Shown: positions 25,601 through 62,619 of the stretch, piece after piece | How positions within the stretch are numbered: position 1 is the first letter of the stretch | Layout of the letters: each line of letters opens with the position of its first letter | From: a virus | Virus record (IMG/VR): IMGVR_UViG_3300045988_029816 | Length of the DNA: 64,000 nucleotides | Strand: one strand, 5' to 3' | The notes under the pieces: generated by a model | Told to the model about the DNA's origin: nothing | The model's input: only the letters and a program-made list of their open reading frames with translations | Databases searched by the model: none | Translations under genes and position numbers: made by a program

Positions 25601-28600
25601 TAGAAAGTATTCTTACATCTAGTATTAACAAACGAGTTATAGATATAGCTACACCTGGTGCTCCATTTATTCAGAGATCAGTTTGGGGTATGGAAGGAAT
25701 GCCTACTAAGCTATTAGATAATCAAGTTCCTGGTATATTTAATGGCACGCTCAATCATGGTAATCGTCTTCAGATGATTAACGAAGAAGGTTCAATGGAC
25801 TGTATGTTGTCATTGGATTACTTTGTAGAATACTACGAGGACAAAAACGGCGAAGAGGTTATGTACTTTAGGCCTGCTGGCAAGAAGTGTAGACTCCAGG
25901 TATTTGATAAAGATACTAAAAAGTTTAGAAACATGTCCTTTACTGAAGCTAGAAAATGGCTTATCGATAACAAGGTTATTGGCTCTTCTTTTGATTATAC
26001 AGATAAAGACGGAAATAAAGTTCATAAAAATGGAGCTAGTGCTAACATTATTGGTTACCGTATTCCTACACAGGCTCAGTCGTCTATACATGCTTTAAGG
26101 TGTGTTGATGTATTACCTGTTGTTAGAGATACTGTTGTGCTTCCGGAGGAGTTTACAAAGATAACCGGTTCTGACTTCGATATTGATAAACTTTTCTTAA
26201 GTTGTAAACCTTACAATTATTATAAGGATAAGGATGATCATAATAAAAGGAAAGTTAATTTTGATTTTGAAGAAGGATCTGAGTAGGATTTATAGGCAAA
26301 ACTTATGGATGGATATATGTCGTTATTACTTGATTGGAAAAACGAAGACGACAAGGATTCTAGAACATGTAACATACTTCATAGGTCTATTGATAACGAT
26401 ACGTCTCTTGTTAAAGCTAAAGGCGCATCATATTTAGGCTTTAATGTACTTTCCGACATAGAGTAGAATCTTGATAAAGAACAAGTTGTAATGCCATACG
26501 ATTTCTATACTCCTAGAAATCAAGTAGAGACTAAAGATACGTTCTTAACAGGTAAAACTGGTATTGGTCCGTTTGCGTTGAATAATAACAGTTAGATTCT
26601 TACTATGCTTTATGATGTTAAGTTTACACAGAAAGTAGGTACTATTATGAAAGACCTTGGTCTTGATAGACTTGGTAGAACCCTTGATAGAAATCAGCAG
26701 AATATATTGTCTTGGCTGTCTGCTATGATTAATGCTCATGTTGATATTGCTAAGGATCCATACATTACTAGATTAAATGTAAACCCTTATACATACAATC
26801 TTGTAAACCTACTTCTTAGAGTCGGTCTTGGAGAGGATACATTCTATTTTACAACTCAAGGCATCATGAAGGATTTGGCTTTTGCGTACAACGATTCTGT
26901 TAGTACGTATATGGCTGATGACAGTAAGACACCTTGGTAGAGACGCAGAGATGCTGAAAACGATGTTCTTAAGAAGTATTTCTCAGAAGAGCCAGAAGTT
27001 GATAATGATCTTAATTGCATACCTAGTATAATGGAGGAAATACAGAAAGGTTTTGATGATATTCCTACAGCTTTAGAGCAAGACTATATAATTAGGTAGA
27101 TTTTAGGAGAATTCTAGAAAGATGGTAAATGGATACGAGGCTATATTGACGCAGAAGGCAACGAACATTTAGTTGATGTTAAGAACAAGGTTAGAAATTC
27201 TATAATTAGAGAGATGTCTATAAATTAGAATCCTAACAAAAAGGGATACATAAACCAAACGTCAACTAAGAAGATGTTTACAGTAATGTCTAGAGATGGT
27301 AAGGAAATAAAATTATCACCATTGGATGTTACAAGGTGGATATTTATAGCTAATAAGAGGTTCGAAAAGCCTGGTGATGCATTGGCAAATCTTGTTAAAT
27401 ATTCTAAGATAGACACAAAGAAACAAGGTAAAAATATAGCTGAGCAAGATGCTTATCTTAAGGGATATAATGATACTTATAATCCTGGAGGATAGACATA
27501 CTAGCAGTTTGAGCCTACAAGTTTATCTGCGTTAAAAGACGGTTCATATATAGGAAAAAAGACTAAGTATGCTACAGATTTATATAGAGACATAGTAGGA
27601 CAGCAGCTCCTTTCTTCTTGTATGGCTGTGTTTGGAACCAGAAATAAAGAAGGTAAGAGAATGAAGGATGGTATATTGCCTCAAATACTTAAAGCAATAA
27701 ACAGAAAAGATGGAGCAGTTCCAGCTGACCTTCTTAACAAGATTATGATACAGATAACATCTTGTATTAAGTCAGAGTTCTTTAACAATTATTGTGATGA
27801 AAACGATATAAATATTCACGACTTATTCTCTGGAGACAATACGATTTATGATAGATTGCTTGATCTTTAGATTAAGGCCGAATCTGATCCAAATTATTCT
27901 TACCTTAAAAACAATCTGCTTTTGAAGGTTCTCGTTCCAACTTTAAATACTGAAGACGGTCCTAATAAAATAGAACACGATCAGATAGAATTACTTAATA
28001 CGTTTGGAGAAAGAGAGGGTACATACGAAAAACCAAAGTTTGTAAAGTTCTTTAATTCAATGGATGATGATAGTAAGAATTCTAACTACGTATACGAAGC
28101 TTGGGAAAGATTACTTGAAGACACAGATGAAACTGTAAAGAATTTTGCTAGAGATTTGGTTGTATATTCGTTCTATTCGTCTGGAGATATGTCTGGTTTC
28201 TCTAAGTTCTTTAAGTACGTTCCAAATAGTTGGAGACTTAATTCTGGATATGTTGATTTCGTAAGAACTAAACTTAAGGACTTAAATACAAGAATACCAT
28301 CTCCTGTTTATATATAGAATATGGTTGATGATATAATTTTAAATAACTGGTTCGATAATGATTTTGTAAAAGAGTATCGCCCTAGTTAGCTTATTGGAGT
28401 AGTTGGACAAAATACAATAACCTATAATCCTCACGCGAAGCCAGAAGATATGATTAGTATGTATGCTAAGTATGAAGGTTATTAGAAAAAGGTTTTAACG
28501 AACAACTCTGGAGAAGCTATTAATATGTTTGGTATATTATCTCCATTTGATCATGCTGCCCCTAATATAGCATGCGGCTTAGCTGTAAGAAATGGAAAAT

Positions 28601-41037: not shown

Positions 41038-41778
41038 TTACTTAAATATTCTATCCCAATGTGTTGTAAGTGTCCCATCTTCATTACCTTCTGCAATAAC
41101 GATATCCTTTCCGGCTATGTGTCTTGCACGAGCCTCCATGATGGTATCAGATGTACCACCTTTAAAGGATATATGCGTTTCATTTCCTTTGCGATATACA
41201 TAACCAACCGCATCGGCTAATCCACACACGATTTTACTCAGCTTACCAACCAAGTCGAGCTCTTTTGCAGAAACTTCAACACCATCCTTTTCAGTTACGG
41301 TGTCTTTAACGTGACCTACAAGAATAAATTCGTCACACAAATCTCGGAACATATCAACTACCTTCTTTACTGCGTCTCTAAGATACTTATATCCAGCACC
41401 GTTAGGCAAGGTGGTTACGTCTGTGCCGTCCCACTTCTTACCCATTGGAGTTTGGCGATAGAGTGTACAAGCATAGCTCATACAAATATCCTCAAGTCGT
41501 GTAGCATTATCGATAGTGATATGCTTATAGAAATTATGACCTACTTCTTTATTCTTGGCACGAATGGCACTTGCTGCTTCTCCTAAATCATTGATCGTAC
41601 GACACTGGATGGCCATCGCATCAACGAAGACAGAGCCTCCCTCAAGGTCTATGATAAGGTTATTATCCAGCTGTGCAAGACAAGATGTTTTACCAGCCTT
41701 TGGAAGACCATAGAGTATAAGATATCTAGGATTTTCAGAAATTGCAGGAATTTTACTAGTAGGTAATGTTAAACTCAT
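41038..41778 (-). CDS. AAA_24 / Sak4-like RecA-fold ATPase (recombination/replication)
   Basis: 'RYLILYGLPKAGKTSCLAQLDNNLIIDLEGG' is a Walker A followed by the 'DxEgG' signature typical of phage AAA_24 proteins. A Walker B-like 'FILVGHVKD' is present. Confidence 0.7.
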   Translation of the reverse strand: MSLTLPTSKIPAISENPRYLILYGLPKAGKTSCLAQLDNNLIIDLEGGSVFVDAMAIQCRTINDLGEAASAIRAKNKEVGHNFYKHITIDNATRLEDICMSYACTLYRQTPMGKKWDGTDVTTLPNGAGYKYLRDAVKKVVDMFRDLCDEFILVGHVKDTVTEKDGVEVSAKELDLVGKLSKIVCGLADAVGYVYRKGNETHISFKGGTSDTIMEARARHIAGKDIVIAEGNEDGTLTTHWDRIFK

Positions 41779-41803
41779 GATACAATGATACTAAAAGTTT
41801 TAA

Positions 41804-48956: not shown

Positions 48957-49550
48957 TTATGCTATCTTATCAGCTGGTTTAGAATCTGCCTTCTGACGCT
49001 CGTAGTCTGCAATGATCTTCTCGTTTGCTGCAATGGCAGACAAACACTGAGCCTTAGCCTTATTAGCCTGCTCAATAATTGCATCAAGGCGAGCGATCTC
49101 ACCACGGTTAAGATCGTTAAGAATGCCACCCAAATCCTTAGGATCTGAGAACACAGCCTTAGAGTTCTTGTCCTTAAGAGCGTTCTGAACTGCCTCCTCT
49201 GTGGTCTCACCAAACTTGGTGCTGTTCTCACCGAGAGGGATATCAATCTGGTGCTCGGTGCCCTCATTGAGACGGCAAACGACATCACCGATTGCATTCT
49301 GCTTGGTTGCCATAGACTCAATCGTAATATAACCGATCACAAAACGGCGAGGTGAACGATTGAGCACAAGGTTTACATTGGAGCTCTGCTTAGCCTGCTC
49401 CAAAACCTTGTCATGGTCTGGGTTGAATAAACGGGTCTGAGGAGTAAATACGTCCTGACCAAACATTTTTGCACCGAGCATGCTCAGTGGGGTACGATTT
49501 GACTTAATAGTTGTTTCCACGATGTTTACATTAATTTCTGACATAATCAT
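48957..49550 (-). CDS. Hypothetical protein (197 aa)
   Basis: Intact ORF. It is the first gene after the 2.1 kb ORF-free block. A palindrome and a family-A hairpin lie upstream. Confidence 0.6.
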   Translation of the reverse strand: MIMSEINVNIVETTIKSNRTPLSMLGAKMFGQDVFTPQTRLFNPDHDKVLEQAKQSSNVNLVLNRSPRRFVIGYITIESMATKQNAIGDVVCRLNEGTEHQIDIPLGENSTKFGETTEEAVQNALKDKNSKAVFSDPKDLGGILNDLNRGEIARLDAIIEQANKAKAQCLSAIAANEKIIADYERQKADSKPADKIA

Positions 49551-49560
49551 ATCCTTTTTG

Positions 49561-49587
49561 ATATCGTTATTGATTAACTAACGATAT
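49561..49587. promoter_or_regulatory. Perfect 9-bp inverted repeat (ATATCGTTA-N9-TAACGATAT) 10 nt upstream of the 48957..49550 start codon; operator or leader hairpin
   Basis: Read directly from the sequence. Confidence 0.5.
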
Positions 49588-49644
49588 GATTGAAAAATAT
49601 GGTGTATTTTGGCTACACCTTTGCCGTTGTTTATTGAATAAAGC

Positions 49645-49669
49645 AACGCTGATACGAAGATACTCGGTT
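49645..49669 (-). repeat. Family-A hairpin copy 0 (conserved loop GATACGAAGATACT on +)
   Basis: The core is at 49651-49664. Flanks AACGC/CGGTT pair imperfectly. It lies about 100 nt upstream of the ATG at 49550. Confidence 0.55.
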
Positions 49670-51071
49670 ACTACTTTGCGTACTTAGTTTTCTAAAGGAA
49701 GTTCTACTATTGTAGACGCTTTATCTAGACTTAGCTGCACTTTCTCTATTACGACAATAGGATAATAGGCTTGCAGCAGGAATTGCATACGTATGATACA
49801 ATTAGCATTTACTGGTTTATCCAGGCCCATCGTCTAAAGCTTTGAATGCTTCCTTTGCATAATCAAATGCTGAACTGTTTTCTGCTATTTTGTTCACGTT
49901 TTTTCTAACTTAACTATTCTAATTTTCGTTGGTGAAATTTTGCATAGCAACTAACACTCATAGAATCTTAGAATTTTCTATAACCCACGAAAATATGTAG
50001 AATCTCGGTCGTATTTCCCTTACTATACTTACAAGATCTTCCTACAGGTTGTCGATTAAACGCAGATTTCCTCGGCTAATAAGTTTTAAAAGCGCCTAAC
50101 TTATCGAAATGGCTCCTTACTGCGGTACTCGGCTTATGGCATGTACCCAGCGGTTGGTTATCGGAATGTCTTAGGATCAAACCCATCACAGACTTTACGG
50201 CTTTTTACATCTTTGCTGATGTTTGCAATTTTTCTGTACCGGTATTACTACCTCCTATTTATAGTGCACGAATATTGGGAATTCAACCCATACATTTCAT
50301 CTTGTCACCCACTTATAACGTAATATACATGTATAGAGACAGTATACACATATAATATACACAGTCGTTTTACAACATAGATATAAGCTGCCCATCAATT
50401 TCCTGTATTGCTTCGAACCTTTATGTTTACATATACTGTTGCGCAGTATACTTTAGCATGGTTGGCATATCGGTTGGCACTCGATTTCTTCACCTCAAGC
50501 TCTTACTTACAACGTAAGATTCACTCTATGAAGGGACATCAATTTTTGTTAAACATGTTATCTTTTAAACTTTCTAGGTTTTCATAATTTATATCTTTTG
50601 CATACAACATACGCATACATAATATACCAGCTTACTACTCTGTAGAGACTATGTAATATTGTATATCATGGTGCAAATAAACTATTAGTCTAGATCGTTT
50701 TGGATGAAAGTGGAGGTCAAATGGTCCTGGATGGACATATCTCGAATCAACTTTCTACCTGCTTTGCTATTTCTTATTCTAGGATAGCTCTCCATCAATT
50801 TTCTTTGACTGTAACGGAGTCATCGATCATAGTCTCATGAACGATTTAATTTTCATGGAAATTGGCTGTAAGTTCGGATTGCCTAACATCCTAATAATAC
50901 AACTGGAATAGATTTTCACCGCGATCTTCACCCGCGTACGATACTCCCGTAGAGCTTCGATTAAGGGGCTGCCCAACCCTTGCGCTTGTTTTACTTTTAT
51001 ATACCGCATAAACAAGAAAAGCCTGGCGGTCGCAATCAGACACTTCTACCCCATCCCTGGCACCCCTTCAA

Positions 51072-51096
51072 CGGAGTTGTACTGAATCGAACAGTA
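51072..51096 (-). pseudogene. Orphan T-arm/acceptor-like module inside the ORF-free block
   Basis: In + it reads GGAGTTG-TACTG-AATCGAA-CAGTA. In - sense this is TACTG-TTCGATT-CAGTA-CAACTCC. The upstream sequence gives only a 5/7 acceptor match and no D arm. Confidence 0.35.
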
Positions 51097-51706
51097 AGGT
51101 TTTGGTATAGTCAGCAAACTCATTTAGTTTACTCTGTGTGGTATTACTCCCACAGTATTGATGCAGTTTTTCGGCCTTTATACTAGCTTTGGACACTAGA
51201 AACACTACCTACGGCTTAATAATACTTCTATATTGTTTGGGATATCCTCGGTTCTTCCAGCACCATGCACCATACCATGTATGCAATTCTGTTCACCTAC
51301 TGGGGACCAATATAGTTCATCTCGTGTAACGTTTGTATATGCTTAGTATTATCACATATAATTACGATACGGTTCATTATGCCCTTCTTGGGACTTATGC
51401 GTTTTTAGATTATACAGCCTCATCCAGCTTGTCTCCAGACGGTTCTCACAAGTCCAGCTGTATAATCTATAGGAGCTGATACAACGCTTCTCCTACCTAT
51501 ATCAAACTGTTTCAATGTTTGATACATTTCATCCTACCTTTTGAGTGATCTCGCCCTGCAAGACAGAGTTAACATATTCTCGGATCAAGTTTAATTTATT
51601 GAGTTTTTCTTCTAGCTCCTTCGCGAGGGATGTTCCAGAATAGTACGTAGACTAATGGGATCTACCATATGTACTTACCCAATTATAGTGTATAGGGTTC
51701 TTATGT

Positions 51707-52108
51707 TTACTTATGCACATTGGAGGCGATTTGAATATAATCATTGAGCTCTCCCTTACGAATGGTAGAGTTGTGATTAGTGGAGTCGACCTTTTCTCCA
51801 GGTTCCATAATATACAGAAGTGGTACATACGACGTATCTGTCTTCTTAATTACGGTGCGTTTAACAATTACCTTTGCAGGTAACTGTTTATGGTTACAAG
51901 GTACAGGCTTTTCTACCCTAACGGTATCATGCACTGTATCAGGATTAGCACGATTCACTTGACCAAACAAATGGTCCATTGGTTGCTGTACAGTAGATGC
52001 TGCTACTGTCTGCACTGTCGTTGGAAGGGGAACATTCTTAAGATCGGCAATATTCATGCCAATAGTAAGGAATGCTGCTCCTAACAACGTGATTACTAAT
52101 TTTTTCAT
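51707..52108 (-). CDS. Secreted/exported small protein (signal peptide)
   Basis: The N-terminus is MKKLVITLLGAAFLTIGMNIA. The 133-aa ORF is intact. Confidence 0.6.
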   Translation of the reverse strand: MKKLVITLLGAAFLTIGMNIADLKNVPLPTTVQTVAASTVQQPMDHLFGQVNRANPDTVHDTVRVEKPVPCNHKQLPAKVIVKRTVIKKTDTSYVPLLYIMEPGEKVDSTNHNSTIRKGELNDYIQIASNVHK

Positions 52109-52209
52109 ACTTTGATAGTTAAATTATTTTCGTTCACTTTGCCATTGGATGTCAAAGGCTCTTTTAATACGACCAACTAGTTGTGAACCAGTTCTCTTAA
52201 TTGGCCGTA

Positions 52210-53721
52210 TTATTTTTTTACTTGAGCCTTGGCCTTACCTTTGGCTTCCTTTTTCTTATTCTCAGTTGCCTTCTTATCAGCTGCTTCCTTAGCAGCCTTG
52301 GCAACAGCCTCTTCCTCAGCCTTGATTTCCTCATCGGTCTTGAACTCCAAGTCGATGATATTCTCCTTGGCATAACCTACGAGCGGATCAGAAGGATTAC
52401 GGAACAGGTTAGAGATGATACCAGCATGCTGCGTAGCGTTATCAAGCATTGAGTCAGACTTAACCTTAGCCATCATCTCTGGAGTAACGTCGCGATAATA
52501 TGCACGCTTAATGGCGATAACAGTCTTCTTTGCAAAGTTGTTACCCTCCAAGAAGTTCTTCTTCAAGTTCTCAACGAACTCGCCTGGAGCCGCAAGAACC
52601 GCTGCAGTAGCCTTATCGGCGAATGCGATGTTCTTGTTAGCGGCATCAATGTGCTCCTTGACACGATCCTTTTCTGGCAGCTTGTTCTCTGCCTCGAGCA
52701 AGATTTTACCCTTTGAGCGAATATCGTCTGCACCAATGATTACGAGGCACTTTACAGCGTCTGCAATCTGATCATCGGTATACTTGCATACGCCGGTGTT
52801 CTTGTCAGTAGAATGGTCGCGAAGCTCACAGAACGCAGATACAGGAGATCCTGACGTAGCGGTAACATTGAAGAAGTGAGCACCAATTCCATAAGTAAGC
52901 GTTCCGACACGACCCGTAAGCTCAACAATCTTGCGAAACGTATCATGGAAGTTCATGTTTTTGAGGCGCTCAAGGTCATTCTTTGCAGAAGCAAGAGCCT
53001 TTTCAGCGTTCTCTTTGTACTTCTTGTCTTTTGTGTTCTTGAGCGTCTTCTCAGCAGAATCGATAGCATGCTTAGCTTCAATAGAGCGATATGACTTATA
53101 GAAGTTCACACACTGCATGATGCTATCCATCAGCTTAGAATCACGGTTCATAGCTAAGAAGCCAGACAAAGCTTCCTTGAGCTCTTCTTCGTCTTTGATC
53201 TTTGTAGGATCAAAAACCTTACCTGCTGTTGCAGCACGAGCCTTAGCATCCTTGTCAAGACTCTTTGCTGTCTCTTCTGATACTGTTACAGCTGAAGCTG
53301 TAACTTCAATTGCTTCGGCATCGTCTTTTGAAGGCAAGAGCTTTGTGTCATCAAAGCTTACACCAATCTCCTTCAAAGCTTCAGTAAGCTCTGGGAGCGC
53401 AGACTTACGGATTACAACAGCGAAATCGCTGGTACCATACTTGACCTCATTACATACACATACTGCGATGCCGAGGGCATTAATATGGTTGAGTTTGTCG
53501 ATAGTTCCCTGCGGGAAGCCAGTGTGCTCAGCAGCTTTCTCATCCAAGAAGAAACGATCGTGAGCCATCTTCAACAAATCTACCTGGTGATTACGATCCA
53601 TGCTTGACCCACCTGTTGTTGTGAGCATAGCTGCAGCCTCAACAGCTGCATCTGCATTGTTACCACCATTGTTGTTATTCTGAGCAACTTTTACATTGCC
53701 CTTTCCATTCTTTTTTGCCAT
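52210..53721 (-). CDS. Hypothetical 503-aa protein with N-terminal Asn/Gly-rich and C-terminal Lys/Ala/Glu-rich tails
   Basis: Intact ORF. It shares a nearly identical ~45-nt upstream leader with gene 56527..57021. It begins MAKKNGKG and ends ...KKKEAKGKAKAQVKK. Confidence 0.65.
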   Translation of the reverse strand: MAKKNGKGNVKVAQNNNNGGNNADAAVEAAAMLTTTGGSSMDRNHQVDLLKMAHDRFFLDEKAAEHTGFPQGTIDKLNHINALGIAVCVCNEVKYGTSDFAVVIRKSALPELTEALKEIGVSFDDTKLLPSKDDAEAIEVTASAVTVSEETAKSLDKDAKARAATAGKVFDPTKIKDEEELKEALSGFLAMNRDSKLMDSIMQCVNFYKSYRSIEAKHAIDSAEKTLKNTKDKKYKENAEKALASAKNDLERLKNMNFHDTFRKIVELTGRVGTLTYGIGAHFFNVTATSGSPVSAFCELRDHSTDKNTGVCKYTDDQIADAVKCLVIIGADDIRSKGKILLEAENKLPEKDRVKEHIDAANKNIAFADKATAAVLAAPGEFVENLKKNFLEGNNFAKKTVIAIKRAYYRDVTPEMMAKVKSDSMLDNATQHAGIISNLFRNPSDPLVGYAKENIIDLEFKTDEEIKAEEEAVAKAAKEAADKKATENKKKEAKGKAKAQVKK

Positions 53722-53787
53722 TTTGATAATGTTTTTAAATGTTATTTACTAAAATTAATTAATACTTTCTGGGCAACTAGCTTAAAT

Positions 53788-54183
53788 TCAACTTGTGTCG
53801 AATATAAAGTTCGTTTTTAACCAATCTCGTGGAGGTTTAGTGAGCACGTTAATATGCTCGTCTTCACCCAAGTTAAGCACAGTAACAGTATCTACTACAA
53901 TTGTATCCTTACCTGCTGGTTTTGTCTCAGCACATGTACCGGCGCCCTCTGAGGGTTCCAAAGCCTGAAATGAGCACGTCGGTGCCAGCATGGGATTTGT
54001 AGAAGATTTAACTGTACTGGCTTCACTTTTATGGTCAACAAAGGCATAGTTGACCATACTCTTACCGGTAAAACCGAGCAAGAGACTTACGAGAATGATC
54101 CAGAACAACTTGTTGCTCTTATTGTATCTTGCGAAACCAAGAGCTACAAAAATCGAGAGAATCAATAATAAAAGTGAAGTCAT
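53788..54183 (-). CDS. Two-TM membrane protein immediately downstream of the ECF sigma gene (anti-sigma candidate, weak)
   Basis: TM segments are LLLLILSIFVALGFA and LFWIILVSLLLGFTG. There is a 5-nt gap to the sigma gene stop. Confidence 0.5.
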   Translation of the reverse strand: MTSLLLLILSIFVALGFARYNKSNKLFWIILVSLLLGFTGKSMVNYAFVDHKSEASTVKSSTNPMLAPTCSFQALEPSEGAGTCAETKPAGKDTIVVDTVTVLNLGEDEHINVLTKPPRDWLKTNFIFDTS

Positions 54184-54188
54184 TTTTG

Positions 54189-54746
54189 TTAAACTTTTAA
54201 GTTATTTTTAATTTTCCTACGAGTGCGGCTTAGTGCAGCTTTTATAGTGCCTGTAGGAATTTTCAGCACTTTGCTAATTTCATCAACGGTAAGATCTTCT
54301 ACGTAAAATAGATTAAAAATCTTCTGTGTCTTCTTTGGGAGCTTTTCAAACTCCTTTAGAAGAGATTCATACTCAAGAAGATTGACAAGATCTTCTTCTT
54401 CTGAAGAATTAGTTAATTCTACAGGTAGTCGGCCTGTATCTTCTCCTAACTCCATGGATTTCTCCTTTACTTTTCGTAGATAATCTATAGCTGTTCGATT
54501 AGCTATAATTCTCAGCCATCCGCCAAAAGACGAATAATCTGTGAATGTCGAGAGTTTTTGGTGAACCTTAAGAAATACAACATTTGTAAGATCTTTAGCT
54601 TCATCCATGTCATTCACGTAACAAAAGAGCACGTTGTCAACGAACTCTTTGTAACGGTTAAACAATTTATTAAACGCTAGCTCATTTCCCTTTTGAGCTT
54701 CTTTTATGGTCTCAATCTCAGATTGAGTGATACGCTGATACTCCAT
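54189..54746 (-). CDS. ECF-type sigma-70 family RNA polymerase sigma factor
   Basis: Region 2 is 'AFNKLFNRYKEFVDNVLFCYVNDMDEAKDLTNVVFLKVHQKLSTF...FGGWLRIIANRTAIDYLRK'. Region 4 is 'LPKKTQKIFNLFYVEDLTVDEISKVLKIPTGTIKAALSRTRRKIKNNL'. Confidence 0.85.
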   Translation of the reverse strand: MEYQRITQSEIETIKEAQKGNELAFNKLFNRYKEFVDNVLFCYVNDMDEAKDLTNVVFLKVHQKLSTFTDYSSFGGWLRIIANRTAIDYLRKVKEKSMELGEDTGRLPVELTNSSEEEDLVNLLEYESLLKEFEKLPKKTQKIFNLFYVEDLTVDEISKVLKIPTGTIKAALSRTRRKIKNNLKV

Positions 54747-54775
54747 ATTGTGGGATAGGGGAGATCTCTCTCACC

Positions 54776-55192
54776 CTACTCCTGATAAAACGGAAGATCG
54801 TACACCATCTTCTGACGGTATATCGACCAAACGTTGTTGACGAAATTGTTGAAAAGGATTATTTTCAAATCCTTTCCTCCCGTTTTCATTTCTACTTTTT
54901 CAAGTAGTCCTGAACCGATACGCATACGAGTTGTAAGTGTTTTGAACTTTATAGGGTTGCTTAGGATTATCGTTTTCATAATCCAATCACTAACTCTACG
55001 TAACTGCTCATTACAACAGTATTCGTATATACAATCTTCGTCTAGGCTGTCTCCTGCACAGAATATGTGCGGTTCATAAGTAAAGCCCTTTTTAAGGCGG
55101 TTATGAAACCAGTTAATCACATTTTCTATACCTTCTTCTTTGCAGCCTAACAGACTAGCTCTGTAAATTAGCATTTTAGGGAAATACTCCAT
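54776..55192 (-). CDS. Hypothetical protein (138 aa), terminated by TAG
   Basis: Intact ORF. Its stop codon is TAG (+ strand CTA at 54776-54778). Confidence 0.6.
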   Translation of the reverse strand: MEYFPKMLIYRASLLGCKEEGIENVINWFHNRLKKGFTYEPHIFCAGDSLDEDCIYEYCCNEQLRRVSDWIMKTIILSNPIKFKTLTTRMRIGSGLLEKVEMKTGGKDLKIILFNNFVNNVWSIYRQKMVYDLPFYQE

Positions 55193-55204
55193 TTTTTATT
55201 TTGT

Positions 55205-55726
55205 TTAATTAAATGTTTTCTTAATAAACTTAGAGAAATCTTCAAAATACTCATCTAGAAAACTAGCTTTTTCTGACAATGCTTTATCAAATAAAGCCAT
55301 ATTGCCACACTTACATGATATGTTATAATAGTTTTCTAGGTACTTATAGTTCTCTTGAAACCATACTACCCAGCTATTAACCCAGATCCAAAATGCTCGT
55401 TCTCCAGAGTTGAATACTTTGTTGATGCCATCCAAATTTATAGAGTCTGCAAAATTAAAATTTTGCGACCCCTCATGTATTCCAAGAGCTTTTCTTAATG
55501 ATGCATTCTTTTCATCTGTTCGAGGTATTCCTCTTCCAGTGTTATAGATTGCTACATTTTCTTGGTATACACGGTCTATCCATCGCGTCTTTACAGCATA
55601 CTTAATTCTTTCATGTGGCTTCTTACCTATATTAGATAATCTGCCAAATTCTGTACACCATTTAAATGCGAGGTTGACGACATGAGGACACCTGTCCTTT
55701 ATCATCGCTTTATATCCCTTTGTCAT
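55205..55726 (-). CDS. Hypothetical protein (about 173 aa)
   Basis: The track ORF extends to 55789, but its first 21 codons overlap a tRNA-like element. The ATG at 55726 (MTKGYKAMIKD...) is the likelier start. Confidence 0.55.
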   Translation of the reverse strand: MTKGYKAMIKDRCPHVVNLAFKWCTEFGRLSNIGKKPHERIKYAVKTRWIDRVYQENVAIYNTGRGIPRTDEKNASLRKALGIHEGSQNFNFADSINLDGINKVFNSGERAFWIWVNSWVVWFQENYKYLENYYNISCKCGNMALFDKALSEKASFLDEYFEDFSKFIKKTFN

Positions 55727-55735
55727 AACTAATAG

Positions 55736-55795
55736 GAAGAAGCTAGGGAGTCGAACCCTAATCCTCGGGTGTGTAGCCCAAAGAACCAACTTCTT
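55736..55795 (-). tRNA. Truncated (D-arm-less, ~60 nt) tRNA-like element; anticodon-loop CTACACA; function unclear
   Basis: In - sense it reads AAGAAGT-TGGTTCT-TTGGG-CTACACA-CCCGA-GGAT-TAGGG-TTCGACT-CCCTA-GCTTCTT-C. It has a 7-bp acceptor (one G-U), a 5-bp anticodon stem and a canonical T arm. Only 7 nt stand in place of the D arm. Confidence 0.4.
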
Positions 55796-56009
55796 CTTCT
55801 CTCCACTTTGGTAGGAAACACCTAGACTAAACTTACGCTACGTTAGTATAGTCTACAATGTTATTTACATTGCCGTTTAATTTATAGTATAGTGCTTAAT
55901 GTATTTATCTCCTCTGCCTGTCAAAACCAAACACGCCCGTGTAGGAAGTTTTACAACATTCCTAGGTTGTCCAAATGGAATCTACACAATAGCGTAGAGG
56001 ATGCTCCGT

Positions 56010-56034
56010 GGACGTGAGGGGAGTCGAACCCCTG
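56010..56034 (-). pseudogene. Orphan T-arm plus 3' acceptor module
   Basis: In - sense it reads AGGGG-TTCGACT-CCCCT-CACGTCC-A. No 5' acceptor lies upstream. The only complement (GGGCGTG) lies about 70 nt downstream. Confidence 0.4.
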
Positions 56035-56220
56035 TCCAGACAGATTATTTCATACACACTGTACATTTCTTGTAAATGTTCCGATGATCAGTCAGAACAT
56101 TCGATTTAAGCCGTTTTAGGTGCGCTCTAAGACATTTTTGCGGCACTCGTGGTTAATTACTCCACTTGGTGACATACTCTGCCTCAGAGCGCTTAAAACA
56201 TGGCTAAAAATATATAGGAA

Positions 56221-56248
56221 TCCTCATGATACGAAGATACTTAGAGGG
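56221..56248 (-). repeat. Family-A hairpin copy 1
   Basis: + strand: CCTC-atGATACGAAGATACTta-GAGG. Confidence 0.6.
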
Positions 56249-56389
56249 CTATATTCAGCATTTTTGATACATTTTGCAGGGTTCAATTAGCTTTTCAGAG
56301 CAATCAAATCTCCCCGATACAAAGATACGCACAAAACATATTGTTTGATCTACTGTCCCAATTTACTGTGTGGGGTCACATCTCTTCCT

Positions 56390-56418
56390 CTCATCGTGAT
56401 ACGAAGATACTTGATGAG
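56390..56418 (-). repeat. Family-A hairpin copy 2
   Basis: + strand: CTCATC-GTGATACGAAGATACTT-GATGAG (6-bp stem, 17-nt loop). Confidence 0.7.
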
Positions 56419-56490
56419 AATGTTAATTCATTCTGGGATTCCTTCGCTGCCTCGTCTTCTTAAGATCCTCTACAGTGCTTCAGAATCTAT

Positions 56491-56515
56491 GTACGTGATA
56501 CGAAGATACTTGTAC
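56491..56515 (-). repeat. Family-A hairpin copy 3
   Basis: + strand: GTAC-GTGATACGAAGATACTT-GTAC. A degenerate loop copy GATACAAAGATAC lies at 56316-56328. Confidence 0.65.
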
Positions 56516-56526
56516 TAGAAGAAGAA

Positions 56527-57021
56527 TTAAAAACGATCGAACTGATAGTTGGCATAATACCAATTGTTAGGGTACTTGTCGCGCAACTCACGGTCGTGCT
56601 TTTCGTACTCTTTGTTCAGTTCAGTCATTTGCTTACGCTGATCCTCATCGATCTTCTGCGAAAGTTCGCGGAATTCGTTTGGCGTAATCTTCTGGTCGTC
56701 AGGAACGGCGGTACCATTCTCGTCCTTGCCCAGAAGACGGGCCAACAATTCTGTACGCTTCTTCAGAGTGTCGAGAGTGATCTTTGCCTTCGCACGGTCC
56801 TTGCGGACATTGAGAAGTTCCTTAATTCTAAGGAAGTCAGCACACTTGACAATTTCTTTGACCTGGGAGATCTTGCGCTTCTCCTCGTCCTGGCGGATTT
56901 CTTCTGCCGCCTTGTCTGCGATGTCGGTCACAAGGTTGCCCTTCATTAACTTCTCTACTACGTTGTCTGCTGACACATTCTGCTGCTCTTTAGCAGCACC
57001 TTTTGTTTCTGCTTTTGCCAT
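56527..57021 (-). CDS. Hypothetical Lys/Glu-rich protein (164 aa)
   Basis: Intact ORF. It shares its leader with 52210..53721 and starts MAKAETKG. Confidence 0.65.
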   Translation of the reverse strand: MAKAETKGAAKEQQNVSADNVVEKLMKGNLVTDIADKAAEEIRQDEEKRKISQVKEIVKCADFLRIKELLNVRKDRAKAKITLDTLKKRTELLARLLGKDENGTAVPDDQKITPNEFRELSQKIDEDQRKQMTELNKEYEKHDRELRDKYPNNWYYANYQFDRF

Positions 57022-57057
57022 TTTGATAATGTTTTAAATGTTTGTAAATAAAATTAA

Positions 57058-57291
57058 TTAACATATTGTTACTTCTCCCACACTCCAGGATGGATTTTTA
57101 ACGAATATTGCGCCATTATTATTAATGGTGATATCGCATGGAGCTTTATGAGAGCAGTTAGCCAAATGAATAAGTGCGAATCTAGCTTCTATAGCTTGAT
57201 TCTCACTAGGGTACTTGGATTCAAATACCAATGTTTTTGTATTCTTACCCTTTCCCTTAGCTTTTGTCGTATATACTGGAATCTTCCACAT
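57058..57291 (-). CDS. Hypothetical protein (77 aa)
   Basis: Intact ORF with a TAA stop. Confidence 0.5.
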   Translation of the reverse strand: MWKIPVYTTKAKGKGKNTKTLVFESKYPSENQAIEARFALIHLANCSHKAPCDITINNNGAIFVKNPSWSVGEVTIC

Positions 57292-57403
57292 AATCTAAAG
57301 GATTTAGTTTGTTTTTAAACTTGTCACGCTTATATGCCTTTACTTTGGCTTCTGCGTGACGCTGACGATACACTTTCTTAGTATTACGTTGTGTTTTATA
57401 CAT
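57257..57403 (-). CDS. Possible small basic protein (48 aa), below the track threshold
   Basis: Hand translation gives MYKTQRNTKKVYRQRHAEAKVKAYKRDKFKNKLNPLDYVEDSSIYDKS*. The ATG is 2 nt after the upstream TAA. It overlaps the next gene's start by 35 nt. Confidence 0.3.
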   Translation of the reverse strand: MYKTQRNTKKVYRQRHAEAKVKAYKRDKFKNKLNPLDYVEDSSIYDKS

Positions 57404-57405
57404 AG

Positions 57406-57825
57406 TTACATGTTATCTTGAACCGTTTTAAATACACAAATAATATCGGTAGAAATACCGTAAGAATCACGCATTCTCTTACTTATACCACCAGACATAA
57501 CTCTGATGGCATTCATAAGAGATTCATTGTTAGGCTCATTAGTTATAGCCTCTGACAATGCAAGCAACAGCTTCATCTTGGAGCAGAAAAACTTACCAAA
57601 TCTTTTTTTCACGTAGATGCACGCAGACTCTACAACAGAAAGTTCTGTAGCATTCTTGGCTTCTGCGTGACCGATAATAATGGAATTAACTTCCGTTTCA
57701 TCCATTGTAACTGCATGCACATCCTTAACATCAGGTTTAACTGTGTTCAGTTGTGAAGCTATTGCCATAACTTCAGATGGATCCAAACTAGAACCATCGT
57801 AAGAGATAATAATGTACCGCTTCAT
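57406..57825 (-). CDS. Hypothetical protein (139 aa)
   Basis: Intact ORF. Its ATG lies 2 nt after the upstream TAG stop. Confidence 0.6.
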   Translation of the reverse strand: MKRYIIISYDGSSLDPSEVMAIASQLNTVKPDVKDVHAVTMDETEVNSIIIGHAEAKNATELSVVESACIYVKKRFGKFFCSKMKLLLALSEAITNEPNNESLMNAIRVMSGGISKRMRDSYGISTDIICVFKTVQDNM

Positions 57826-57827
57826 AG

Positions 57828-58319
57828 CTAATCCTCCTTTGTTGTTATGTTAGTACTGGAGGACTGCACGATCTGTACATGCTTACCGTCGATAATAGTA
57901 TCAACCATTTCTACGTTAGGGATATCAGGAGGAGCAATCGCATTGTATTGATCCTGTTCATCAGGAAGATTCAAATATACATGCTTGTTCATCTCGAACT
58001 CGTTCGATATACTCATCTTAGTCAATGGTTTCCCAGATTTTTCTAAGACCGATACCACATCGCGCATAACCTTTTCAGGTATGCTGAAGAACACTGAGTC
58101 CTGATGTCTCCATTGACCTTCCGATCTCTGAAACTCTATAACGTCAGAACAGTCGGTAAATGTAGGATTGTCAATATCCTGCATCATCTTTGATACCATG
58201 AGCGAGTCATCGTGTTTGATCTCACTCTTAGTTTTTTTCATGTAGTCACATGACGATACTGTGACGGCTACAATAAGCATGATTAAGCACATGCTAAGCT
58301 TTTCGAATAATCTCTTCAT
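57828..58319 (-). CDS. Lipoprotein (signal peptide plus lipobox), terminated by TAG
   Basis: The N-terminus is MKRLFEKLSMCLIMLIVAVTVSSC, with lipobox VSSC. The stop is TAG (+ CTA 57828-57830). Confidence 0.65.
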   Translation of the reverse strand: MKRLFEKLSMCLIMLIVAVTVSSCDYMKKTKSEIKHDDSLMVSKMMQDIDNPTFTDCSDVIEFQRSEGQWRHQDSVFFSIPEKVMRDVVSVLEKSGKPLTKMSISNEFEMNKHVYLNLPDEQDQYNAIAPPDIPNVEMVDTIIDGKHVQIVQSSSTNITTKED

Positions 58320-62449: not shown

Positions 62450-62577
62450 TTAGGGGATAAAATGCTTATGAATAATGAATATCAGACTACAGTATGATGC
62501 AAATGTTTACCGTAGTTTCGTCTAGGTCTCATCAGTGATTATGTTAGACTCTCCCTAGCTGAGTTTAAATTAAAAAT

Positions 62578-62605: not shown

Positions 62606-62619
62606 ACGAAACAAATCTA

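Follow-up and report, generated by a model that had tools for sequence, protein, structure and literature searches.

In the coat-protein operators of the RNA phages MS2 and PP7, a small hairpin includes the start codon of the regulated gene, its identity lies in unpaired or bulged bases and not in the sequence of its stem, and cognate pairs vary between related phages; in MS2, the two equivalent bases A-4 and A-10 are read by a symmetric dimer. In systems of the Csr type, the motif of CsrA/RsmA is repeated in hairpins of the non-coding sponge RNAs CsrB/RsmZ and also occurs on the translation starts of targets. Here we report a previously undescribed family of two-bulge hairpins, with a conserved regulon, in phages of the subfamily Oafivirinae. 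We followed it from a set of repeated hairpins in a 64,000-nucleotide (nt) stretch of viral DNA (IMG/VR record IMGVR_UViG_3300045988_029816; 'the window', at its full length), which an earlier note, made from the sequence alone, had read as candidate promoters of a phage RNA polymerase (RNAP). The repeated hairpins form one copy-family of a small folded element of ~30 nt, probably RNA, which in function would most resemble the RNA-phage coat-protein operators and the Csr-type systems with their motif in hairpins. No exact match to five motif strings of these phages was found in literature text, the sole string matched being a segment of a Bacteroides fragilis CRISPR (clustered regularly interspaced short palindromic repeats) repeat.

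Signals for transcription provide the other described systems for comparison. The promoters of the N4 virion RNAP, a T7-like enzyme injected by the phage, form clusters of hairpins in which the unpaired bases are conserved while the stems vary with compensation; they have a 5–7-base-pair (bp) stem and a 3-nt purine-centred loop, act on the template strand and lie upstream of early genes at the genome end (PMC4496689). The lambda nut site combines boxA with boxB, a short RNA hairpin (5-bp stem, GNRA-like pentaloop) that occurs twice per genome at the boundary of early and later genes and is recognized in a lineage-specific manner by the arginine-rich N protein. In phage P23-45, whose virion RNAP gp96 is of the crAss class, terminators near the early region consist of a conserved 26-nt motif lacking a hairpin and U-tract, mapped to 3' ends by ONT-cappable-seq (PMC10770324). 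For the one crAss-like virion RNAP studied, gp66 of phi14:2, early transcripts shared no common upstream motif, and as of 2020 no promoter or terminator signal was defined for a crAss-like virion RNAP (10.1101/2020.03.07.982082).

The window belongs to a crAss-like phage: bases 54000–58000 are 98.8% identical to the uncultured phage cr124_1 (NC_055899.1; Crassvirales, Suoliviridae, Oafivirinae, Burzaovirus faecalis). From ~35.5 kb to the window end every gene lies on the minus strand, in the order small early-type open reading frames (ORFs), a permuted transfer-messenger RNA (tmRNA), an extracytoplasmic function (ECF) sigma factor and replication genes. We describe the element on the minus strand, the sense strand of these genes, where the copies share the sequence AA-GTATCTTCGTATC-AC. 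The tmRNA leader (56069–56526, ~460 nt) carries hairpins C, B and A together with the stemless site 3. The copies, with the tmRNA gene and a companion hairpin, are as follows.

56491–56515, minus strand: hairpin C, with stem GUAC/GUAC, an AA/AC internal loop and core GUAUCUUCGUAUC
56418–56433, minus strand: companion hairpin GAAUG-AAUUAA-CAUUC (RNAalifold, seven lineages)
56390–56418, minus strand: hairpin B, with stem CUCAUC/GAUGAG and the core of hairpin C (covariance model R1, 36 bits, E 4e-7)
56315–56329, minus strand: stemless site 3, C-GUAUCUUUGUAUC-G, where the AA/A flanks give way to C(-1):G(+14)
56222–56247, minus strand: hairpin A, with stem CCUC/GAGG and the core, followed by AUG (R1, 30.4 bits, E 1.7e-5)
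55833–56068, minus strand: permuted (two-piece) tmRNA gene (Rfam RF04321, 66.7 bits; also called by ARAGORN), with tag GNVNNIVDYTNVA
54729–54741, minus strand: sigma site, core GUAUCAGCGUAUC within codons 2–6 (E-Y-Q-R-I) of the ECF sigma ORF 54189–54746
49642–49672, minus strand: hairpin D, AGUAAC(C)G...CGUUGCU around the core, with one bulge and one G.U (R1, E 0.003)
41771–41800, minus strand: site E, whose core GUAUCAUUGUAUC directly adjoins the AUG of the AAA_24 (Sak4/RecA-like) ORF 41038–41778

Hairpin C begins 11 nt past the stop codon of ORF 56527–57021 and scores 35.1 bits (E 7e-7) with R1, a covariance model built from 48 sites. Within the window R1 detects all four hairpins, A–D (E 4e-7 to 3e-3); the late region and loci from two further Suoliviridae subfamilies gave no hits. 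The syntenic positions of cr6_1 and cr118_1, inspected and scanned with R1, showed no element of this family, and an unbiased search of other Suoliviridae subfamilies for 5-mers in direct repeat gave output too noisy to use. Hairpin A, whose flanks are invariant within the genus, lies ~155 nt upstream of the Rfam tmRNA match. Hairpin D marks the 3' end of a 2.1-kb ORF-free stretch, ~100 nt upstream of ORF 48957–49550. The core of site 3 occupies 56316–56328 and has no outer stem; that of site E occupies 41779–41791, its ORF matches Pfam AAA_24, and a possible outer stem AAACU/AGUUU would take codons 2–3 as its 3' arm. Site E is also present in the relative L074. Allowing up to 3 mismatches, the 17-mer matches the window 5 times against 0.25 expected, and none of 100 shuffles gave as many. 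The structural pattern finds 7 sites on the minus strand against 0.8 expected, and its 2 plus-strand matches are no more than chance would give and are unrelated in sequence. Elsewhere in the cr124_1 genome there are no further copies.

These results sharpen the earlier note in several respects. The positions and sequences it gave for hairpins A–D and for a fifth, 'degenerate' copy agree with the window, as do the stems of A, B and C; the stem of D, described as imperfect, is better than that, with a single bulge and a single G.U. It had reported that no copy is followed by a U-tract, and we likewise see no T-run after any of them. Its statement that all copies are non-coding does not hold, since the sigma copy lies inside codons 2–6 of an ORF; the copy at 41779–41791, which abuts an ATG, had also been missed. 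The 'degenerate' copy was correctly located but belongs to a conserved stemless class found in every genus.

The 13-nt core, taken by the earlier note for an open loop, contains two covarying base pairs. It can be written G1-N2-N3-N4-C5-NNN-G9-N10-N11-N12-C13, in which N3:N12 and N4:N11 covary. The 5-mer pairs seen are GAGTC..GAACC, GAACC..GAGTC, GAGCC..GAGCC, GTATC..GTATC and GAATC..GAATC; the combinations GAGTC..GAGTC and GAACC..GAACC were never seen. The 5-mers therefore occur only as complementary sets, from which it follows that N3 pairs with N12 and N4 with N11. Across 111 distinct sites defined by map position, one inner pair is AU 57 times, GC 51 times and GU 3 times, and the other is CG (55), UA (50), UG (5) or, at one site, unpaired. 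Together the inner pairs are 99.8% paired compared with 88.3% in shuffles (0 of 500 reach this value), and all slid registers collapse.

With G1:C13 and C5:G9 added, this gives a predicted 4-bp mini-helix with one-base bulges at N2 and N10 and a three-base cap (UUN or AUN, usually UUN) closed by C:G. The two bulged bases always match each other (A/A in most genera, U/U in this phage), and a purine is conserved directly after the core. The hairpin class has in addition an internal AA/AN loop and an outer stem that varies (3–9 bp) and encloses 17–19 nt. RNAfold predicts the inner fold for GAG-type sequences and gives GTATC an alternative register. Folding energies range from -3.5 to -8.5 kcal/mol with z-scores of -1.8 to +1.3 and are not significant against shuffles, so the case for structure is made by covariation alone and not by thermodynamics; the weak intrinsic stability fits a fold needing a partner.

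The outer stems covary as well. A scan of our collection with a 15-mer found ~55 relatives at 74–99% identity, and orthologous hairpins at the genus level keep the core constant and alter their stems by compensation. At site B, CTCATC/GATGAG is replaced by CCTATC/GATAGG, with CCUGUC/GAUAGG (G.U) and CUCAUC/GAUGGG (U.G) also present; at site C, GTAC/GTAC is replaced by GTGC/GCAT, AGAC/GTCT, GGAC/GTCC and GGGC/GCCC. Several stem intermediates are paired only as G.U on the minus strand. In the hairpin class, which comprises 87 unique flank pairs and 60 distinct stems from ~80 related loci, the best helix averages 4.86 bp compared with 2.81 ± 0.13 bp for flanks re-paired among sites (maximum 3.30 in 1000 trials), whereas flanks of the stemless class reach 2.81 bp, no better than chance. 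A fixed-register test on 48 sites picked only by their AA...A flanks found 78.1% of cells paired compared with 60.9% in shuffles (0 of 500 reach this value) and 22–37% in slid registers. The proposal of a selected hairpin in RNA or single-stranded DNA is thereby strongly supported, and the compensation extends over the viral subfamily.

The same layout is found in sister genera, represented by Chuhaivirus cr130_1, Buhlduvirus cr273_1, Bohxovirus and Dulem virus 42, and a further 78 loci were located through the sigma protein. In the sister genera, three hairpins and one stemless copy stand in the ~450-nt gap upstream of the permuted tmRNA (the arrangement of tmRNA and leader recurs in cr130_1 and cr273_1), the first gene to follow a conserved ~2-kb ORF-free stretch has one hairpin ~100 nt upstream, and further copies lie on start codons. 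The equivalent of site 3 occupies the same place in all genera and reads gcGAACCAUNGAGUCgg. The position of hairpin D, ~+5000 from the sigma start, is likewise kept in all genera, with varying stems (for example, ACAUC/GAUGU in cr273_1). The words themselves change: where this phage has GTATC, sister genera have GAGYC, GAACC or GAATC. The loop that had been called invariant is thus so only within the genus, and a search of the wider clade, as the earlier note had advised, retrieves the architecture and map positions but different words, GAGYC and GAACC among them. The change is recent, as the sigma protein of relative L165 is 87% identical to that of the window and yet its word is GAGCC-TAA-GAGCC and not GTATC; the bulges have accordingly switched from A/A to U/U between close relatives. 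Copies within one genome differ at 4–6 of 13 positions, with compensating changes.

A single exact GTATCTTCGTATC also occurs in an unrelated phage group (L038, 5742–5754, minus strand; also L007, L036, L049 and related gut viral contigs of ~90 kb), where it abuts the ATG of a 73-residue ORF of HU/IHF-like appearance, as judged by eye. Chance may account for this, or the group may make a distant use of the element.

Several features point to folding in the transcript of the sense strand. All 7 sites in the window lie on that strand, and over related loci the relaxed pattern was counted 461 times in the sense and 69 times in the antisense direction. Internal mismatches in the outer stems are G.U in 32 cases and A.C in 14, with 3–10 in each other mismatch class, and the inner helix contains 8 G.U cells. 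The companion hairpin always lies immediately 5' of hairpin B; 4 of its 6 pairs show double compensatory changes across seven lineages, and its loop is near-invariant (AAUUGA in one lineage). The covariation of this companion argues that the tmRNA leader is a folded transcript. A 71-nt long hairpin before the tmRNA (56122–56192, minus strand) also shows compensatory changes across seven lineages. When 55700–56600 was compared with Rfam 15, only the permuted tmRNA exceeded the gathering score; the other matches were a sub-threshold beta-tmRNA on the tmRNA gene and weak hits that we judged to be chance.

Other structured or conserved segments were seen near the copies. Two A-rich islands (~56340–56352 and ~56262–56272, minus strand) share the consensus AUCAARAAU, with ATCAA invariant in a seven-lineage alignment, and precede site 3 and hairpin A by 11–25 nt in a boxA-like layout. 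A hairpin of a separate family, GUAGGG-N13-CCCUAU (54755–54779, minus strand), immediately precedes the start codon of sigma; compensating changes turn it into GCUUAGGG...CCCUAAGC in L009, a relative with 74% identity.

Away from the tmRNA leader, copies gather at translation starts. Sites fall within -19 to +30 of the start codons of the sigma factor (at least five lineages), the DNA polymerase (at least eight), the AAA ATPase and an ScpB-like gene (cr273_1). The sigma copy is present in every Burzaovirus-type locus; in other lineages, GAAUC-NNN-GAAUC lies inside the first 30 nt of the sigma ORF, and the N-terminal residues of sigma vary between genera exactly at the motif. At the DNA polymerase gene, the core directly adjoins the AUG, again in at least eight lineages, so that the conserved A14 is the A of that codon, and codons 2–3 form the 3' arm of the outer stem. 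In Dulem virus 42, it is the orthologous AAA ATPase gene whose ATG falls within the core. All start-codon sites fit inside a ribosome footprint. In Bohxovirus-like phages, one site lies 255 nt into the DNA-polymerase ORF.

The element itself, its fold, strand bias, conserved map positions and word switch are shown by the sequences; action in RNA, binding by a protein and an effect on translation are what we infer. The reading we tentatively prefer, at rather less than even confidence, is that of an RNA operator through which a phage factor, specific to the lineage and probably dimeric, would control translation post-transcriptionally. Such a factor, probably a symmetric dimer, would read the two identical bulges as the MS2 coat protein reads its two adenines. 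Binding at or near the start codon would block translation initiation, here of the sigma factor and AAA ATPase and in sister genera of the DNA polymerase, and the 3 + 1 tmRNA-leader copies, like the one in the 5' untranslated region after the 2-kb gap, may be high-affinity loading, sequestering or stabilizing sites of the regulon. The evidence leans towards the fallback of the earlier note, namely protein-binding or processing sites. As in MS2 and PP7, the hairpin is small and its identity appears to reside in bulged bases that differ between relatives, and for some copies only, it includes a start codon. Unlike those operators, two single-base bulges here flank a 2-bp covarying core, an extra outer stem is present, the genome is that of a double-stranded DNA phage, and there are 7–10 copies per genome, some of them in a non-coding tmRNA leader. 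The Csr likeness lies in the combination of repeats in a non-coding RNA with copies on translation starts; here, however, the motif is a structured 13-mer and not GGA, the leader has just 3–4 copies and the 'sponge' would be a tmRNA leader. Pfam detected no CsrA domain in the ten ORFs around the sites, the part of the genome that was scanned, and Bacteroidota are not known to use Csr.

crAss-like phages rank with the most abundant viruses of the human gut, almost nothing is known of their gene regulation, and most, including this subfamily, are uncultured. The regulon would join the phage tmRNA, an ECF sigma factor, the DNA polymerase, a recombination ATPase and the operon after the conserved 2-kb non-coding region. 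The element offers a mutable target for in vitro binding, translation and transcription assays that need no host, and a search model for annotation. As an operator it would add a new protein–RNA recognition pair and possibly an orthogonal tool in Bacteroidota.

A number of observations weigh against an RNA operator. Action at the RNA level is suggested by strand bias and wobble pairs only, and a hairpin in non-template-strand DNA would yield the same signal. The sequences compared are phylogenetically related, and the shuffle tests consequently overstate independence. G1:C13 and C5:G9 never vary, so that only two of the four inner pairs are proven. Translational repression alone explains neither the site that Bohxovirus-like phages have 255 nt into the DNA-polymerase ORF nor three tandem copies upstream of a tmRNA that is not translated. 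Nor did a binder emerge: ORFs neighbouring the cluster, including those between the tmRNA and sigma, have no Pfam, PHROG or PADLOC assignment and no PDB profile match. The best positional candidate, offered as a lead only, is ORF 56527–57021, which has a conserved arginine-rich helix reading LRARRREEK in A-bulge genera and VRKDRAKAK here; this segment tracks bulge identity without a clean fit. The protein is 25% identical between the window and L165, where neighbouring genes are 77–87% identical, and the 503-residue ORF further along is 33% identical between the window (U bulges) and L165 (A bulges); both ORFs evolve fast in all lineages, so their divergence gives no clean correlation with the bulge. 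AlphaFold models ORF 56527–57021 as a generic long helical hairpin (predicted local distance difference test score, pLDDT, 82) with no fold match, Foldseek returning nothing at E ≤ 0.001 and nothing in the PDB, and ORF 55205–55726 is modelled poorly (pLDDT 58).

The main competitors place the element in transcription. The elements may be start or sequence-specific stop signals of the crAss-type two-barrel virion RNAP, read as folded single strands; we regard this as rather unlikely, although it would provide the first promoter or terminator signal for such an enzyme, with a genus-specific code in the bulge bases, and answer an open question about the crAss virion RNAP. An unlikely account, too, is that of a promoter, in which an extruded hairpin is read by the injected virion RNAP or by host RNAP with the phage ECF sigma factor; transcription would then start at the conserved A after the 13-mer, giving leaderless mRNAs where an ATG abuts. 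In its favour, every copy is co-oriented with the genes, three tandem copies ahead of a stable-RNA gene form a typical promoter arrangement, the base that follows the core is a conserved purine, and several genes have their ATG directly against the core. The genus-specific words resemble co-evolution of RNAP and promoter, host-type TAnnTTTG boxes are rare in the minus-strand block, and the phage encodes both a two-barrel RNAP with a DFDID motif and an ECF sigma factor, each without known promoters. However, in at least five lineages the sigma ORF carries a copy within codons 2–10, and one copy encloses the ATG in its core; a promoter inside the first 30 nt of the sigma ORF could not serve the sigma gene. 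Conserved RNA hairpins lie between the supposed tandem promoters, and the precedent of phi14:2 gp66, with its early transcripts lacking a common upstream motif (10.1101/2020.03.07.982082), points the same way. The anatomy also differs from described promoters. N4 promoters have a single stem and a purine-centred loop, whereas here a two-tier hairpin has an outer stem of 3–9 bp, a pyrimidine (UUN or AUN) triloop and two bulges. G.U pairs are enriched on the non-template strand, which is suggestive but not proof, the copies lie >10 kb into the leftward block at the sigma ORF and replication starts and in the 5' ends of ORFs, and the polymerase is of the two-barrel type. The N4-like virion-RNAP promoter preferred by the earlier note is consequently not favoured. 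An ECF-sigma promoter has a -35 GAAC-like and a -10 CGT/GTC-like box ~16–17 bp apart; here the 5-mers are 3 nt apart, no -35-like element is found 16–17 nt upstream and the flanks are merely variable stems. The promoter of the Bacteroidota primary sigma factor has a -33 TTTG and a -7 TAnnTTTG box 19–21 bp apart; TAnnTTTG occurs only in site 3 and in this genus only (as TATCTTTG), with no TTTG or TTG in the scanned -33 window, the other copies read TATCTTCG, and other genera lack the TA.

A signal acting on elongation through the nascent RNA, either a factor-dependent terminator or attenuator at the boundary of early and middle genes or a nut-like antitermination site with a boxB-like hairpin preceded by the boxA-like AUCAARAAU island, is a slightly less likely alternative. 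The sense-strand fold is compatible with it, hairpin C starts 11 nt past a stop codon, hairpin D closes a 2-kb non-coding stretch, A-rich islands with an invariant ATCAA precede site 3 and hairpin A, an arginine-rich helical ORF lies just upstream as the lambda parallel would have it, and the related two-barrel virion RNAP P23-45 gp96 terminates at its conserved motif (PMC10770324). Against this, the stems are short, weak and of mixed composition, where an intrinsic terminator has a G+C-rich stem and U-tract; sites at the AUG of the DNA polymerase, AAA ATPase and sigma genes would terminate before or inside essential genes; and, unlike lambda nut, copies sit on start codons, islands precede only 2 of 7 sites and, downstream, no terminator is evident on which an antiterminator could act. 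Processing by a structure-specific endoribonuclease like T4 RegB or Cas6 is improbable; it would release a tmRNA precursor from a polycistronic transcript and inactivate middle mRNAs at their start codons. The sense-strand fold suits this account as well, the copies lie upstream of a tmRNA that needs maturation from a longer transcript, a hammerhead ribozyme in the same transcription block shows processing in use, and start-codon and in-ORF sites suit control of decay, but no nuclease domain was found among the neighbouring ORFs searched, and three or four cuts in one leader would be redundant. Recognition in duplex DNA (origin iterons, a repressor operator, the target of an RNA-guided sigma factor or a mimic of a host CRISPR repeat) is essentially excluded. 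It could appeal to clustered repeats of the same orientation near replication genes, to a locus of ECF sigma factor, ~500-residue protein and 2-kb non-coding stretch that recalls the rpoE–dCas12f–guide RNA loci of dCas12f–sigmaE systems (PMC12259090), and to GTATCTTTGAACC in the type II CRISPR repeat of B. fragilis (PMC6390457). Covarying stems and inner pairs are unexpected for duplex recognition in general and for iterons in particular, and cumulative GC skew has its sole turn at ~35.5 kb, with no change at the cluster. One guide cannot match all copies, since those in one genome differ at 4–6 of 13 positions, and the 503-residue neighbour has no Cas12f/TnpB signal (Pfam, PADLOC and PDB profile). 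The likeness of the 47-nt B. fragilis repeat to site 3 (56316–56328) is a partial one over 13 nt, a hybrid of phage words, and the GAG-type 18-mer gave 9 single chance-level hits and no arrays in 185,579 genomes; we judge it a coincidence, and the TATCTTTG of site 3 also fits the Bacteroidota -7 box.

The surroundings of the element hold further features. Positions 1–35 kb carry late genes and a giant polymerase on the plus strand, with a DFDID motif, the catalytic motif of two-barrel RNAPs, at 26173. Few long ORFs appear in 1–35500 (plus strand) with genetic code 11, yet RefSeq annotates giant coding sequences, which is consistent with stop-codon reassignment in late genes. After the tmRNA, ARAGORN makes an odd call of 'tRNA-Cys(aca)' (55735–55801, minus strand) that overlaps the TTG-start version (55205–55789) of the next ORF. 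The block 51707–54746 (minus strand) encodes the ECF sigma factor (r2 and r4 domains), a 131-residue protein with N-terminal membrane helices, and then two more ORFs, a fast-evolving lysine-rich protein of ~500 residues followed by a signal-peptide-like protein of 133 residues; its gene order is syntenic throughout Suoliviridae.

The ORF-free stretch of ~2.1 kb (49551–51706, minus strand) follows the sigma, ~500-residue and small ORFs and is syntenic in three Suoliviridae subfamilies (counterparts: L123 19027–21051; L124 19021–21243; L205 23204–25283; L206 22911–24830). Within Oafivirinae it contains collinear nucleotide blocks that are 68–94% identical, above many flanking proteins, and one 30-nt block is 93% identical in Bearivirinae. 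Rfam gave no credible match in 49400–51900. The stretch may be a large non-coding RNA; in phi14:2, long intergenic regions are highly transcribed (10.1101/2020.03.07.982082). Further along the minus-strand block, a RAGATH-1 hammerhead ribozyme lies at 62480–62565 (minus strand, 76.9 bits), and ~50 nt upstream of it, at 62612–62619 (minus strand), is the sole intergenic TAnnTTTG box with an upstream TTG on the minus strand between 35.5 and 64 kb.

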